Shown: positions 5,418-9,675 of the stretch, one piece after another | How positions within the stretch are numbered: the first letter of the stretch is position 1 | Layout of the letters: every line of letters begins with the position of its first letter | UHGV virus genome: UHGV-0070257 | Origin: a virus | Reading direction: 5' to 3' (one strand) | Length of the DNA: 13,250 bases | The notes under the pieces: model-generated | Database searches by the model: none | Told to the model about the DNA's origin: nothing | What the model saw: only the letters and a program-made list of their open reading frames with translations | Program-made: the position numbers and the translations under genes

Positions 5418-6169
5418 GCTTAAACAGTGATTATCAGAAACTTGAGCCGGGCAATGTTGTCCGGCTTTTTGATGTCGATGGCACCGCATTTGGTGTTTCC
5501 GACGTTCTCCGCTTCCACGCCCACAATATTGCCCACACTCCCGATGAAATTGCCGCTGCTGGTGGAGATGAAAATAAGCTACCGGCGAAATCGATCTGGT
5601 GGCAGGGGCAGGAATATAAAGCCTGGCCCTGCCAGATAGAGGGAATTGAGACTGCGACCGACGGGACCAGTGCGCAGCCAACGCTCTCGGTCGCTAACCT
5701 GGATAGTTCCATTACGGCGCTGTGTCTTGCTTATGATGACCTGCTGCAGGCAAAGGTCACCATTCATGACACACTGGCGCAGTATCTGGATGCGAAAAAC
5801 TATCCGGAGGGCAACCCGTCTGGGGATCCTCAGCAGGAAAAGCTGAAGGTGTTTTACATAGACGCCAAGAGCACTGAAACCAACGAGGTGGTGGCGTTTA
5901 CGTTGTCCAGTCCGATGGACCTGCAGGGGCTGATGATCCCGACGCGCCAGTTACATTCGCTTTGTACCTGGTGCATCCGTAACAAATACCGCTCCGGTGA
6001 TGGTTGTGACTACGCCGGAACTCGCTATTTCGACAAACTTAATAATCCTGTTACCGATCCTTCGCGCGATGAATGTAACGGCACGCTCACCGCGTGCAAA
6101 TTGAGGCATGGCGAGGGGAACGAGTTGCCGTTCGGTGGTTTCCCTGGCACATCCCTGATCAGGAGTTGA
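5414..6169 (+). CDS. L: minor tail protein, lambda L-like (251 aa) with C-terminal Cys cluster
   Basis: ATGA overlap with the M stop. Motifs WQGQEYKAWPCQIEG, TSAQPTLSVANL, DPQQEKL, CTWCIRNKYRSGDGCDYAG, CKLRHG and FGGF correspond to lambda gpL as recalled, including the cysteines of its iron-sulfur site. Confidence 0.9.
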   Translation: MSLNSDYQKLEPGNVVRLFDVDGTAFGVSDVLRFHAHNIAHTPDEIAAAGGDENKLPAKSIWWQGQEYKAWPCQIEGIETATDGTSAQPTLSVANLDSSITALCLAYDDLLQAKVTIHDTLAQYLDAKNYPEGNPSGDPQQEKLKVFYIDAKSTETNEVVAFTLSSPMDLQGLMIPTRQLHSLCTWCIRNKYRSGDGCDYAGTRYFDKLNNPVTDPSRDECNGTLTACKLRHGEGNELPFGGFPGTSLIRS

Positions 6170-6170
6170 T

Positions 6171-6881
6171 ATGCGTCAGAAAATTATCGACGCCATTATG
6201 GCGCATGCCGCTTCTGAATATCCCCGCGAATGCTGCGGCGTAGTGGTGCAAAAAAGCAGGGTGCAGCGGTACATTCCTTGCCGTAATCTGGCAACCGATC
6301 CGACAGAGCATTTCCACCTGTCGCCGGAAGATTATGCCGCTGCCGAAGACTGGGGAACAGTGATTGCCATTGTCCACAGTCACCCGGACGCAACGACACA
6401 GCCGAGCGAACTGGATAAGGCACAGTGTGACGCTACGTTACTTCCGTGGCATATCCTCAGCTGGCCGGAGGGGGATCTGCGTACCATTCAGCCGCGGGGC
6501 GAGTTGCCGCTACTTGAGCGCCCATTTGTGCTCGGTCATTTCGATTGCTGGGGGCTGGTGATGAGCTATTTCCGGCAAACGCATGGCATTGAGCTGACGG
6601 ATTACCGCGTGGATTATCCCTGGTGGGAAGACAGTTATCCCGAAAACTTCTACCACGATTGCTGGTATGAATGCGGATTCCGTGAATTCAGTGGCGTACC
6701 GCAGCCAGGTGATATGGTTATCATGCAGGTCCAGGCCAATAAGTGGAATCACGCGGGAATTCTACTGGAAGGTAACATGCTGTTGCATCACCTGTATGGG
6801 CACCTCAGCCAACGTGTGCCATACGGCGGCTACTGGCAAGAAAGAACAATGAAGGTACTTCGCTATAAGACTCTAGCTTAA
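6171..6881 (+). CDS. K: tail assembly protein, lambda K-like (236 aa) with JAB/MPN metalloprotease and NlpC/P60 motifs
   Basis: RBS AGGAG; start overlaps the L stop (TGATATG). JAMM-type motif E...HSHPDATTQPSELD and Cys/His pair (DCWGL ... HAGILL) seen in the translation. About 37 aa longer than lambda gpK (199 aa). Confidence 0.88.
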   Translation: MRQKIIDAIMAHAASEYPRECCGVVVQKSRVQRYIPCRNLATDPTEHFHLSPEDYAAAEDWGTVIAIVHSHPDATTQPSELDKAQCDATLLPWHILSWPEGDLRTIQPRGELPLLERPFVLGHFDCWGLVMSYFRQTHGIELTDYRVDYPWWEDSYPENFYHDCWYECGFREFSGVPQPGDMVIMQVQANKWNHAGILLEGNMLLHHLYGHLSQRVPYGGYWQERTMKVLRYKTLA

Positions 6882-6887
6882 GCCCAT

Positions 6888-7331
6888 TTAGGTGGACTGT
6901 TCCCCTGGAATTTCCACCCCAAAACCATCCGCATCCCAAGTCTTTTCCCAGACTTCGTAACCTAACTCTTTTAGGCGACTAAAAGTTTTTTTGAAAACAG
7001 TGTTGAAATCATCGTCACTAAGTCCGTCCAACTCAAGATCGCTGAGATGAATATGGAATGTGGAATGACCAATCCGTACCTTTTTGTTGATCTCTGAAAA
7101 AGTCCTTTTGAATATTATTTCAGAGAGTTCATCCCTCGCTTTTTCAACAAGTTGAATTGCATCTTGAGCAGAAATTACTTCATCTTCACGTAATTCGCTA
7201 AGGAAGCTGTTGTCGAGACGTTGAACTATTTCAGCATTCATAGAGCGGTTATTGGATTTTGCTGCATCTTCAATTTTTTCTTTTAATTCAATTGGTAATC
7301 TTATTCTTAGTTGAGGATCTTCTCTGCTCAT
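6888..7331 (-). CDS. Arc/Mnt-family ribbon-helix-helix DNA-binding protein with about 100 aa acidic C-terminal extension of unknown function (147 aa)
   Basis: N-terminus PQLRIRLPIELKEKIEDAAKSNNRSMNAEIVQRLDNSF fits the Arc/Mnt RHH pattern (beta strand with alternating residues, then N-[SA]-E-I-[VY]-Q-R helix), by pattern recognition only. RBS GAGG 7 nt upstream of the ATG on the minus strand. Convergent with K, 6 bp apart. Confidence 0.75.
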   Translation of the reverse strand: MSREDPQLRIRLPIELKEKIEDAAKSNNRSMNAEIVQRLDNSFLSELREDEVISAQDAIQLVEKARDELSEIIFKRTFSEINKKVRIGHSTFHIHLSDLELDGLSDDDFNTVFKKTFSRLKELGYEVWEKTWDADGFGVEIPGEQST

Positions 7332-7366
7332 TTGGTTGCCTCACTCAAAAAGTTCACATTATGTAA

Positions 7367-7440
7367 ATTATGCCCCACGGTGGGGTTGACATCAATGACG
7401 CACGGTGTGACACTTTATGTGTCCCACCGTGGGGCATAAT
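7367..7440. promoter_or_regulatory. divergent promoter/operator region: two inverted copies of ATTATG-CCCCAC(G/C)GTGGGG, overlapping back-to-back promoters
   Basis: Arm 1 (7367-7385, attatgccccacggtgggg) and arm 2 (7422-7440, tcccaccgtggggcataat) are reverse complements at 18/19 positions, and each core is itself near-palindromic. Leftward promoter: -35 TTGATG (minus strand of 7390-7395), 17-nt spacer containing box 1, -10 CATAAT (minus strand of 7367-7372). Rightward promoter: consensus -35 TTGACA 7386-7391, 17-nt spacer, extended -10 TGtGACACT 7406-7414, which would place box 2 at the transcript start. Confidence 0.6.
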
Positions 7441-7450
7441 TGGAGGGGTT

Positions 7451-7618
7451 ATGGAAAAAGCTAAAGATATGTACCAGCGTAAGGTTCGATTTCCTGAAGA
7501 TGTCCGGTTGGCGATAGAGAGAAATGGGGAAGATGAGTGCCGTCAGTTCAATACTGAGCTCATCTATCAGTTGAGGAAAGCGTACGGATTAGAAGGGGGG
7601 AAGAGTGAACAAGCATAA
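7451..7618 (+). CDS. small Arc-like ribbon-helix-helix repressor (55 aa)
   Basis: SD GGAGGGG 7442-7448 then ATG 7451. Translation MEKAKDMYQRKVRFPEDVRLAIERNGEDECRQFNTELIYQLRKAYGLEGGKSEQA is comparable in size and pattern to P22 Arc (53 aa; RWP...NSEIYQR). The track start at 7370 would place the operator boxes inside the ORF and is rejected. Confidence 0.65.
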   Translation: MEKAKDMYQRKVRFPEDVRLAIERNGEDECRQFNTELIYQLRKAYGLEGGKSEQA

Positions 7619-7625
7619 AAACAGT

Positions 7626-7660
7626 GAAACCCAGGAGTGCGCGAACACCCTGGGTTTCTT
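7626..7660. terminator. perfect 10-bp stem-loop (GAAACCCAGG - 13 nt loop - CCTGGGTTTC) with U-rich flanks on both strands; candidate bidirectional terminator/attenuator
   Basis: Read directly: 7626-7635 is the exact reverse complement of 7649-7658. It is followed by TT on the + strand and by ACTGTTTTTAT on the - strand. It lies between the Arc-like gene stop (7618) and the first ATG of the next gene (7692). Confidence 0.45.
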
Positions 7661-7691
7661 ATCGAAGAAATCCTTGGCAGGAAATATCGAC

Positions 7692-8273
7692 ATGAACAGT
7701 GTAACGAAAGAAGAGCTGAACTTCCATGGCATTTCTCTGCAGCCGGCTCCTGATATCGATGGCATCTGGCTGACCGCTAATCAGATTGGTTACGCGCTTC
7801 AATATGCAGACGATAAAGCTGTTCAGCGAATTTTTGCTCGTCATATTGATGAGTTTACAGAAAAAATGACAAGGGTGGTCAAGTTGACCACCCCTGGTGG
7901 GCATCAGGAAACTAGGGTTTTTTCTCTACGTGGCGCACACATGGTCGCTATGTTTGCCAGAACTCCGGTTGCTAAAGAATTCCGACACTGGGTGTTAGAC
8001 ATTCTGGACCGTGAGGTATCTATTAACTTTCCAGTACCGAAGATGCTCAGCGATCGAGAAGTCCACGCCCACAATGCAAACGCAATGTTCGATTATTTCG
8101 AGATTATGTGTGAAGCATGGTTTAACCAGATAGAGCCAGCGTTGAGGGCGATTGAGTCTCCGCTCGCAGGCCGTCTTCACGATCGTTTCAATGATGGGGC
8201 CGCGTTTATGTACATGATTAAGACTCATGCTGAACTACAGCTTCAGGAAGGAGAAAGGCCAAGAATCTACTGA
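7692..8273 (+). CDS. antirepressor-like protein with Bro-N/AntA-type N-terminal domain (193 aa from ATG 7692; alternative GTG start 7605 gives 222 aa)
   Basis: Segment NFHGISLQPAPDIDGIWLTANQIGYALQYADDKAVQRIFARHIDE...PGGHQETRVFSLRGAHMVAMFARTPVAKEFRHWVLDIL fits the phage antirepressor N-terminal domain pattern (F.F...GE.W..A..I...L... ending F..WV). Family call is pattern-based, not searched. Start is ambiguous: GTG 7605 has a G-rich SD but puts the 10-bp hairpin inside the ORF. Confidence 0.6.
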   Translation: MNSVTKEELNFHGISLQPAPDIDGIWLTANQIGYALQYADDKAVQRIFARHIDEFTEKMTRVVKLTTPGGHQETRVFSLRGAHMVAMFARTPVAKEFRHWVLDILDREVSINFPVPKMLSDREVHAHNANAMFDYFEIMCEAWFNQIEPALRAIESPLAGRLHDRFNDGAAFMYMIKTHAELQLQEGERPRIY

Positions 8274-8296
8274 ATTTGCAATGCTGCAAATAGAAA

Positions 8297-8320
8297 AGCC
8301 GATAGTTAGGGCTATCGGCT
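8297..8320. repeat. perfect 9-bp inverted repeat AGCCGATAG-TTAGGG-CTATCGGCT between the two antirepressor-like genes
   Basis: Read directly. No T-tract follows, so it is more likely a protein-binding palindrome or RNA processing/stability hairpin than an intrinsic terminator. Confidence 0.4.
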
Positions 8321-8350
8321 ATCCATAAATCTGTCATAAGGGTCCAACCA

Positions 8351-9094
8351 ATGACTTCATTAAATTTAGCAGTAAATAGCGCTAATGTCACCGAGAAAAC
8401 CATTGATAGCCAGTACTTGCTGGAGATGGTGAATGCTGCGCGAAAGCAATGCGGTGAGCCGGCTGTCCGAAATAACAAGTTCATTGAGAAGGTTGTTGAT
8501 GAGCTTGAAGGGGAGACCTACACAAAAAGTGTAGGTCGTAAAAATGGTCAAGACATTGAAGTAATTACAATGTCTATCAAGCAAGCCCTCCGAGTAGCCG
8601 CTCGTGAATCGAAAGCCGTTCGACGTTCTCTGGTTGATAAGCTGGAAGATATGCAGGTATTACCAGCGATGCCAAAAAGCAACACAGGTATCACTGAGTA
8701 CCGATTGGCTAAGGCAGAACAGTTGAAAGCCCAGGCATTGGAGAAGAATATCGCGAGCGCGCGGGAAATCATTACTCTGCTTCCTAGATTGGATCCGATG
8801 GCACATCAGGTGCTCACGGCATCGTTGATTAATCCGCTTATTGGTTATGACGCCATCCCGTTACCTGTTATCGAGGAGCATTACCACACTGCGAGTGAGG
8901 TGGGGGAGATGCTGGGGGTTTCTGCTCAGAAAATTGGACGCGTTGCTAACACACACAAGCTGAAGACAGAAGCGCATGGCAAGTTCTTTCTGGACAAGTC
9001 GGCCTACTCAAGTAAACAGGTTGAAGCGTTCCGGTACAACACTAACGGAATTGATGCGTTGCGCCATCTGATTCATGGTGCTGATGTGGCATAA
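8351..9094 (+). CDS. phage antirepressor/regulatory protein, Rha-like N-terminal region and KilAC-like C-terminal domain (247 aa)
   Basis: RBS AAGGG. N-terminal TIDSQYLLEMVNAARKQCGEPAVRNNKFIEKVVDEL resembles the Rha-family pattern. C-terminal HYHTASEVGEMLGVSAQKIGRVANTHKLKTEAHGKFFLDKSAYSSKQVEAFRYNTNGIDAL resembles the Ant/KilAC C-terminal domain. Pattern-based assignment. Confidence 0.6.
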   Translation: MTSLNLAVNSANVTEKTIDSQYLLEMVNAARKQCGEPAVRNNKFIEKVVDELEGETYTKSVGRKNGQDIEVITMSIKQALRVAARESKAVRRSLVDKLEDMQVLPAMPKSNTGITEYRLAKAEQLKAQALEKNIASAREIITLLPRLDPMAHQVLTASLINPLIGYDAIPLPVIEEHYHTASEVGEMLGVSAQKIGRVANTHKLKTEAHGKFFLDKSAYSSKQVEAFRYNTNGIDALRHLIHGADVA

Positions 9095-9127
9095 ATTTCA
9101 AAGCAGTTAAAATGTTTTTGCTATCCC

Positions 9128-9155
9128 AACCCGCTTAACTGCGGGTTTTGTCGTT
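9128..9155 (+). terminator. intrinsic terminator candidate (AACCCGC-TTAACT-GCGGGTT then TTGTCGTT)
   Basis: 7-bp stem and 6-nt loop followed by a T-rich run, 34 nt after the stop of the 8351..9094 gene. Confidence 0.5.
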
Positions 9156-9204: not shown

Positions 9205-9630
9205 ATGAAAAAGACTTTGCTGCTTCTAATTGCGCTTAGCGTTGCTGGGTGTTCAACCACGGCGGTGAATTCTACCGTTGCAAAACAAGTACCATCTGAA
9301 CGTGTATTGCTGAAGGGGGCTGGTGACTCGGTGATAACAATTACACGAGATCAAGGATGGTTTGCTGGTGGTGGATGCTTTGTAGAAGTAACTATTGATG
9401 GAAAATCCTATGCAAGAATTGATACGGGAGAAACGATCGATATCAATGTTACATCCGGCCGACATATTCTAGGAATATCTGGCGATTCAAAAGGTAAAGG
9501 ATTATGTGGAATGCAGGTCGGACAACCACTCAAAGAGACTGCCACGCAGATCAATGCTCGTGAACATCAAAAATTCCGCATCACCGGAGATACTAATTCC
9601 GGACTTGATATCAGAGCATCAACCATATAG
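9205..9630 (+). CDS. predicted outer-membrane lipoprotein (141 aa precursor), function unknown; candidate superinfection-exclusion or host-interaction moron
   Basis: ATG 9205 with SD AGGTGA upstream. Signal peptide MKKTLLLLIALSVAGC with lipobox L-S-V-A-G-C and Ser at +2 (no Lol-avoidance Asp). Two further Cys in the mature part. The track start 9148 is a TTG upstream of the signal peptide and is rejected. Confidence 0.75.
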   Translation: MKKTLLLLIALSVAGCSTTAVNSTVAKQVPSERVLLKGAGDSVITITRDQGWFAGGGCFVEVTIDGKSYARIDTGETIDINVTSGRHILGISGDSKGKGLCGMQVGQPLKETATQINAREHQKFRITGDTNSGLDIRASTI

Positions 9631-9650
9631 TTCGAGTCATTTTATAAATG

Positions 9651-9675
9651 GCCACCTCCGGGTGGCTTTTTTATT
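9651..9675 (+). terminator. intrinsic terminator (GCCACC-TCCG-GGTGGC then TTTTTTATT)
   Basis: Perfect 6-bp GC-rich stem, tetraloop and T-tract, 20 nt after the lipoprotein stop and immediately before the gene I RBS. Confidence 0.75.

Follow-up and report, generated by a model that had tools for sequence, protein, structure and literature searches.

The virus genome UHGV-0070257 carries two tandem genes, here called ant1 and ant2, whose products both resemble phage antirepressors and differ in domain architecture. We asked what such a pair is, how it is controlled and what each protein may do, using a stretch of 13,250 nucleotides (the window). Judged from sequence and by analogy with phage P22, ant1 and ant2 would be the effector end of a secondary-immunity cassette of the P22 immI type (an 'ant moron'), inserted into the tail genes of a lambda-like prophage between K and I, with ant1 as the Ant, ant2 as a conserved companion and an antisense RNA for each of the two genes. 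We give this reading a probability of about 0.6. The gene pair is ordinary in kind and widespread, and databases already list the genes, though with vague names; what existing annotation does not contain is the predicted second antisense RNA, named sar2 here. Antirepressor cassettes decide when a prophage is switched on and whether its neighbours are woken as well, and so drive gene transfer and toxin release in Enterobacteriaceae. The present cassette is common in prophages and phages of Citrobacter, Enterobacter, Klebsiella, Salmonella and E. coli.

Two tandem genes within a lambda-like tail block

PHROG scans showed that the window is a lambda-like tail gene block, with the tail completion/terminator genes, the major tail protein, a chaperone pair, the tape measure protein, M, L and K, and then I and J. 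The cassette forms a 2.8-kb insert between K and I, with tail genes on both sides. An earlier annotation made from the DNA letters, the sequence-only reading, had placed two tandem open reading frames (ORFs) in this insert, and both were recovered: ant1 runs from an ATG at 7692 to a stop at 8273 on the plus strand (193 amino acids), and ant2 from an ATG at 8351 to a stop at 9094 on the same strand (247 amino acids). A large protein search returned more than 1,700 homologues for each of them, and most of 80 viral contigs contain the two together; both are therefore far beyond chance ORFs.

Layout of the cassette compared with P22 immI

The immI region of P22 has been described as an 'ant moron' inside the late operon (Villafane et al. 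2008, PMC2629481). The insert between K and I reproduces its layout element by element (mnt, operators, arc, sar and ant), and because of this match we read the cassette as a member of the immI type that has moved into the tail operon of a siphovirus. The proposal of the sequence-only reading that an antirepressor-type module lies here under ribbon-helix-helix (RHH) control was thus supported.

Directly upstream of the ant operon, and divergent from it, lies the gene of an Mnt-like RHH repressor of 147 amino acids (6888..7331, minus strand; Pfam Arc, 3.2e-14 at residues 2-46; PHROG 1388, 5e-67), in the position and orientation of P22 mnt. The 119-bp divergent spacer contains a regulatory region (7366..7441) in which a repeat search found three operator-like copies of a 15-nt motif, at 7371-7385, 7396-7410 and 7420-7434, the outer two of which form a perfect 19-nt inverted repeat (7366-7384 / 7423-7441). 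The core of the putative operator, CCACGGTGG, is identical to that of the annotated P22 Mnt operator, AGGTCCACGGTGGACCT. As in an immI-type region, the predicted operators of the Mnt/Arc type overlap divergent promoter candidates. On the plus strand, a Pant-like site read from the sequence at 7386..7414 combines TTGACA (7386-7391) with the weak -10 element GACACT at a distance of 17 nt, extended by TG at 7406-7407; its position between the operator copies corresponds to that of Pant in P22, and it is likely the operon promoter. On the minus strand, the promoter scan called a Pmnt-like site (7367..7395; TTGATG, 17 nt, CATAAT) which overlaps the first operator copy and is likely the mnt promoter.

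The first cistron of the operon is an arc-like RHH gene (7451..7618, plus strand), whose size of 55 amino acids and position fit P22 arc (Pfam Arc, 18.9 bits; PHROG 228 'Arc-like repressor', 5e-5). An intrinsic terminator called by the terminator scan at 9128..9147 (plus strand) closes the arc-ant1-ant2 operon, and neither the promoter scan nor the terminator scan gave a plus-strand call between ant1 and ant2. The earlier suggestion that both genes are served by one RHH-controlled promoter is therefore compatible with the divergent Arc/Mnt-type gene, the Arc-like first cistron, the three operator-like repeats and this uninterrupted plus strand, but it omits two predicted antisense RNAs, described below.

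Besides the divergent repressor gene, the operator core and a putative Arc-type first cistron, the cassette shares with P22 a sar antisense RNA transcribed from a promoter inside the opening codons of ant, an Ant-slot protein whose C-terminal part is probably of the P22_AR_C type, and its place as a moron in the late operon. The differences concern the setting, which is a lambda-like long-tail block with the insertion at K-I whereas in P22 it lies between genes 16 and 9; the N-domain of the Ant, which is Bro-N here and P22_AR_N in P22; the Mnt-like protein and the operators (147 against 83 amino acids, and three operator copies here); and the extra cistron, ant2, with its own predicted antisense RNA. 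The additional C-terminal residues of the Mnt-like protein, about 95 in number, belong to PHROG 1388 and gave a weak Csa3-like match with PADLOC (3e-4).

A sar homologue over the ant1 start

A cis-antisense RNA of about 70 nt is predicted over the ribosome-binding site of ant1 (7622..7691, minus strand). The Rfam model RF00262 aligned over its full length (model positions 1-68) at 7623-7690 (minus strand), with 31.2 bits and E = 1.3e-3; among the 20 sources scanned with this model, P22 alone was above threshold. In an alignment with P22 sar and 23 related loci, compensatory changes were found in 8 of the 11 terminator pairs, and the minimum-energy fold (z = -6.2) consists of two hairpins in the shape also given by P22 sar. 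A Psar-like promoter (7698..7726, minus strand; TGGAAG, 17 nt, TACACT) lies in the first codons of ant1, at the same place as the annotated P22 Psar, and the pattern TGGAAn-17-TACAnT is kept in all 52 unique upstream sequences (73 loci, P22 included). Additionally, the motif AAATCCTTGG and the Met-Asn-Ser (MNS) start of ant1 are common to P22. On account of the covariation, the common fold, the promoter conserved in the first codons downstream and the shared AAATCCTTGG/MNS, we regard the sub-threshold match as a true sar homologue.

Many database entries give ant1 a longer form (222 amino acids, GTG at 7605), which we rejected. This form runs into the end of arc and through all of the sar region, while the ATG at 7692 is preceded by AGGA 8 nt upstream and matches the MNS start in P22; the long form is probably a mis-annotation.

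A predicted second antisense RNA over the ant2 start

The terminator scan, conservation and folding together predict a further cis-antisense RNA, sar2, of about 69 nt over the start codon and ribosome-binding site of ant2 (8286..8356, minus strand). The 77-bp spacer upstream of ant2 contains the minus-strand terminator of sar2, a stem at 8320-8297 followed by a T-run. The promoter (8363..8391, minus strand; GTGACA, 17 nt, TG-C-TAAATT) was called by the promoter scan within codons 5-14 of ant2 and is conserved in the alignment: all 83 sequences examined have a minus-strand promoter inside these codons. The hairpin with its T-run is present on the minus strand in 83/83 of them and on the plus strand in 0/83, and the predicted RNA is 65-77 nt long (median 69), close to the 70 nt annotated for P22 sar.

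Underneath the -10 and -35 elements, codons 5, 6, 7 and 13 of ant2 have third positions with zero entropy, compared with 1.2-1.85 bits at most neighbouring third positions, and the promoter-bearing codons encode a low-confidence N-terminal tail in the AlphaFold2 (AF2) model of the protein. Between lineages the stem shows replacement or compensation, both sides being altered in 3 of 9 pairs, and its G-U pairs fit the minus strand only, being C-A mismatches on the other strand. The RNA folds into a 5' hairpin spanning the anti-start-codon and the anti-Shine-Dalgarno sequence, followed by the terminator (z = -3.6). A covariance model built for sar2 found one site per locus, phage SPN3UB included.

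The same model gave no match at the sar sites, in P22 or at the locus of the Shiga toxin (Stx) phages, which led us to drop the view of sar2 as a copy of sar that had diverged. No Rfam family matches sar2, and our literature search found no paper describing it; it is apparently unrelated in sequence to sar and undescribed. Phage small RNAs that silence antirepressor-type genes post-transcriptionally are known in P1/P7 (c4), N15 (CA) and Phi24B (24B_1) (PMC10732415). Unlike these, sar2 would be a cis-antisense RNA of the sar type, with the promoter inside its target, two hairpins and a length of about 69 nt, and with no detectable homology to sar. The wider claim, that sar2 is a real and undescribed cis-antisense family with a promoter placed within codons 1-14 of its target, that immI-type operons gate each cistron separately, and that the second-slot protein, rather than being a classical antirepressor, belongs to a new family of regulators whose target is DNA or a factor of the host, has in our estimate a little less than an even chance of being right as a whole. 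If confirmed, sar2 would provide another, independent instance of the design known from P22 sar, and would illustrate cleanly how a promoter can constrain the synonymous sites of coding sequence.

In SPN3UB (L002), a sar2-like RNA is kept at 5654-5725 (minus strand; 46.9 bits with the sar2 model), and the gene downstream of it, 5719-6507 (plus strand), encodes an ORF6N-domain protein. The sar2 RNA and the gene-start region may be a recombination joint. A palindrome, ATTTGCAATGCTGCAAAT, is located at 8274-8291, directly 3' of the ant1 stop, where an element of the TGCAnnnnTGCA type is kept in many related loci.

Domain composition of ant1

Pfam assigned residues 23-104 of ant1 to Bro-N (PF02498; E = 6e-9, 36.8 bits against a cut-off of 25.6) and gave no match to AntA/AntB (PF08346) at E <= 1, so that only the first half of the earlier label 'Bro-N/AntA-type' is retained. 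P22_AR_N is absent by Pfam, with Bro-N in its place. The C-terminal half, previously called unassigned, contains a near-threshold match to P22_AR_C at residues 140-166. This domain occurs in 25 of the 48 aligned ant1-type sequences, P22 Ant itself among them, and is clear in the homologues from SPN3UB (2e-13) and from locus L019; the earlier description of this half would then no longer hold.

The protein belongs to PHROG 5060 and 245 'anti-repressor Ant'. Its AF2 model, with a predicted local distance difference test (pLDDT) score of 88.6, consists of an alpha+beta head and then a long two-helix hairpin, and its structural neighbours among the viral models of BFVD are Bro-N and antirepressor models. 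We therefore describe it as Bro-N followed by a P22_AR_C-like helical hairpin. By its position, its regulation and half of its sequence, ant1 is the putative Ant of this cassette, and antirepressor activity is what we infer for it. NCBIfam has no family for ant1, ant2, the arc-like protein or the neighbouring lipoprotein, and a sequence search of solved structures returned nothing useful for ant1 or ant2.

A strong terminator-like hairpin (12 pairs and a T-run) is found inside ant1 at 7870-7896 on the minus strand, downstream of nothing obvious; it is probably due to chance.

Domain architecture of ant2

The AF2 model of ant2 (pLDDT 90.5) predicts an N-domain with a Bro-N-like fold (residues ~17-102), whose order of elements, beta-alpha-alpha-beta-beta-alpha-alpha, is that of ant1, then a two-helix hairpin (113-164) and a MerR-type winged helix (178-245). 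A Foldseek search of BFVD returned full-length matches to proteins annotated as antirepressor, KilAC, KilA or Rha, and at least 16 BFVD targets are common to the top-50 lists of ant1 and ant2.

In sequence searches, ant2 is a full-length member of PHROG 1726 'anti-repressor' (9e-77), with 52-72% identity to the phage copies. No Pfam match to Phage_pRha (PF09669) or ANT/KilAC (PF03374) was obtained at E <= 1, and the Pfam yield was limited to helix-turn-helix (HTH) hints at E~0.1. The hhalign comparison of the two ant2 domains with small pRha, Bro-N, ORF6N, KilA-N, P22_AR_N and ANT profiles gave no link, with probabilities of 3.8% for the N-domain against pRha and 0.3% for the C-domain against ANT; the power of this comparison is low, as N-domains known to be related also failed to match each other.

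The two domains were matched independently in a search of 1.84 billion proteins. The N-domain is also found fused to Pfam ANT/KilAC, and in the four ANT-positive relatives of ant2 (three checked in detail) ANT replaces the ant2 C-domain. The C-domain in turn is found behind Bro-N (37 proteins), pRha (23), KilA-N (11), ORF6N (9), AntA (6) and P22_AR_N (3). As judged from these fusions and the models, it fills the slot that KilAC fills elsewhere.

Phage regulators built from a Bro-N, Rha, KilA-N, ORF6N or AntA domain and KilAC ('ANT') are a known modular class (Iyer et al. 2002, as cited in PMC9043618), exemplified by Listeria AriS and Gp07 of S. aureus phage phi11. Like them, ant2 joins an exchangeable N-terminal alpha+beta domain to an exchangeable, HTH-containing C-terminal domain, and in fold and architecture it conforms to the Bro-N/Rha-type plus KilAC-type regulators; it differs from them in that neither domain matches the Pfam models or small profiles of pRha, Bro-N, ANT and the others. 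The earlier description of ant2 as Rha-like at the N-terminus and KilAC-like at the C-terminus consequently agrees with the fold and the architectural slot and not with family membership, for which there is no Pfam match. A further new point, besides sar2, is that ant2 would represent a distinct family in the Bro-N/KilAC architectural class.

Members of PHROG 1726 are called 'KilA protein' in phages JEP4 and KP12 and 'antirepressor' in Stx2a phages, names which are annotation only, and our literature search found no experimental paper on the family. Most copies of ant2 are annotated 'hypothetical' or 'KilA', and the RNA that apparently controls the gene is not in Rfam. Showing what ant2 binds would clarify many 'antirepressor' annotations that are based on domain names alone.

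Distribution and independent assortment of the pair

An ant1 homologue lies directly upstream of the ant2 homologue in 70 of the 80 viral loci. Three of the other 10 are at or near a contig end, and seven have a different Bro-N or P22_AR_N gene upstream (5 of these 7 genes were checked by Pfam); in L044, the first slot holds an Ant with P22_AR_N and P22_AR_C (Pfam). Across the loci, identity to ant2 is 64-100% and to ant1 37-100%, the latter often over the N-part only, and the similarities of the two proteins are uncorrelated (Spearman -0.02, p = 0.85, 73 loci). The genes thus assort independently: ant2 is the more conserved partner, and the first (Ant) slot is highly mosaic.

In the P22-like phage JEP4, the cassette occupies the classical immI position. 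It is found at other places among the structural genes of SPN3UB, KP12 and klb_E, and SPN3UB has the ORF6N protein in the second slot instead of an ant2 homologue. An ant2 homologue with 52% identity is also present in Stx2a phages, where it lies in the early-left region and neither RHH genes nor sar2 accompany it. In the Stx-related phage Lyz12581Vzw (L086, 2998-5231), the early-left ant2 homologue precedes two ORFs with AntA domains (95 and 209 amino acids), which could be a split gene; this locus likewise has no RHH genes and gave no sar2 match.

The nearest proteins to ant1 and ant2 come from Citrobacter (97-99% identity), and the index of the assembly collection lists a protein identical to ant2 in 125 blocks. 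In all four contexts shown (L087-L090), the identical ant2 is at the same K-I junction. These four prophages have three different head/packaging modules (ClpP/Mu-gpT-like, lambda E-like and HK97-like) with the same cassette at K-I; the tail-tip block and the cassette apparently travel together. A nucleotide search of the cassette against phage and E. coli collections gave partial matches only, at ~75% identity, without a close named relative.

Proposed mechanism and alternative explanations

Building on the observed anatomy, homologies, conservation and RNA signals, we infer by analogy the repressor binding, operator binding, antisense action and read-through in the following scheme. Transcription from the Pant-like promoter, flanked by the Mnt-operator-like palindromes, would pass through the arc-like gene, ant1 and ant2 to the terminator at 9128-9147. 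As in P22, the Mnt-like repressor would silence this promoter in the lysogen, and the Arc-like product would limit the burst afterwards. The ant1 protein most likely binds and inactivates CI/C2-type repressors, without cleavage. The sar RNA would block translation of ant1 and sar2 that of ant2, each by pairing across the ribosome-binding site and start codon, and each being transcribed from a predicted promoter inside the first codons of its target. Late transcripts would cross the cassette to reach the tail genes I and J, and the antisense RNAs would block translation of both genes on them. Q-type antitermination is usual in lambdoid phages and is assumed here for late read-through, with the late regulator outside the window. 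Because the cassette lies between K and I, where late transcripts must cross it, a separate translational lock per cistron would make sense.

Several observations weigh against this reading. The P22_AR_C match of ant1 reaches 21.3 bits and the cut-off is 22.4, the Pfam score of the arc-like protein is below its cut-off of 20.4, and the sar homologue is below the RF00262 gathering threshold of 43. BLASTP gave no significant alignment between ant1 and P22 Ant, and the weak -10 element of the Pant-like site was not called by the promoter scan. The evidence for a conserved target of ant2 consists of its conservation pattern and its predicted fold. The conservation of the promoter inside ant2 might in principle be due to another constraint on the 5' coding region, for example from mRNA structure or translation initiation, which would leave the strand-specific terminator unexplained. 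A related objection is that the minus-strand signals before ant2 are a bidirectional terminator together with a chance promoter-like string, and that there is no second antisense RNA. The promoter scan indeed gave 5 promoter-like sites against 4.7 in shuffled sequence, and sar2 has no Rfam family. A bidirectional terminator does not account for a hairpin and T-run confined to the minus strand in all 83 sequences, nor for compensatory stem changes with G-U pairs valid on that strand only; chance does not account for synonymous sites that are invariant under both promoter hexamers, for a predicted length (65-77 nt) that matches sar, or for an element that persists in SPN3UB despite a different downstream gene. 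We therefore consider this explanation very improbable, and retain sar2 as a predicted antisense RNA.

The role of ant2 was weighed in the same way. The sequence-only reading had suggested that both proteins are antirepressors for different CI-type repressors, those of the phage itself and of co-resident prophages, which would widen the range of prophages de-repressed. Both are indeed in PHROG families labelled anti-repressor, with structural neighbours annotated antirepressor or KilAC, and both lie in one operon under immI regulators; trans-acting antirepressors moreover cross-talk between Salmonella prophages (PMC7380047, citing Lemire 2011). The family labels, however, are annotation and not tests, ant2 is conserved whereas repressor-specific binders are expected to diversify with their targets, its C-terminal end is modelled as a winged helix of the DNA-binding type, and its homologues in Stx phages are without RHH control. 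Structural relatives of ant2 occur in virulent phages, which we also count against two antirepressors. AriS, a two-domain 'antirepressor' by annotation, acts on the host SOS response (PMC9043618). The data lean against this suggestion, and it seems to us rather unlikely. On the other suggestion of the sequence-only reading, that one of the two may regulate the other, the independent assortment of the genes is the one observation that bears. We think it more likely that ant2 has a conserved target, which would be either a DNA site or a factor of the host, because ant2 is conserved while the Ant slot is mosaic, because of the winged-helix fold and because of the AriS precedent. With ant1 as the sole antirepressor, ant2 would then be a host-directed or DNA-binding regulator, modulating SOS like the KilAC domain of AriS or regulating transcription or growth like Rha/KilA-type proteins. 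AriS (AntA/AntB and KilAC) inhibits SOS via its C-terminal domain and its N-domains are interchangeable (PMC9043618), and the ant2 C-domain takes the corresponding place in the architecture, following the same N-domains; the predicted MerR-type winged helix, the high conservation and the independent assortment from ant1 point in the same direction. Yet this C-domain is without sequence or profile similarity to Pfam ANT/KilAC, so that the AriS activity is not transferable to it, no DNA target of ant2 is known, and the gene is placed in an immunity cassette directly after the Ant, which makes a regulator of host or DNA a tentative proposal. Finally, ant1 and ant2 might be subunits of one heteromeric antirepressor joined via their helical hairpins, as suggested by their adjacency in 70/80 loci and by the long two-helix hairpin that follows a similar N-domain in both AF2 models. 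This explanation was downgraded on the independent assortment across 73 loci and is very unlikely: the first slot is swapped among unrelated Ant types and the second for an ORF6N protein, ant2 homologues stand alone in Stx phages, and P22 Ant works without such a partner.

Neighbouring gene and defence search

A role of the insert in defence was also considered and rejected, PADLOC having given no match for ant1, ant2, the arc-like protein or the lipoprotein and two weak hits for the Mnt-like repressor. The lipoprotein gene (9205-9630, plus strand; 141 amino acids, PHROG 890, 6e-43) encodes a lipobox-type signal and, with a promoter-like site at 9086-9113 and a terminator at 9650-9667, forms a small unit of its own, lying after the ant2 terminator and before tail gene I. 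Superinfection exclusion or surface modification might be its role.

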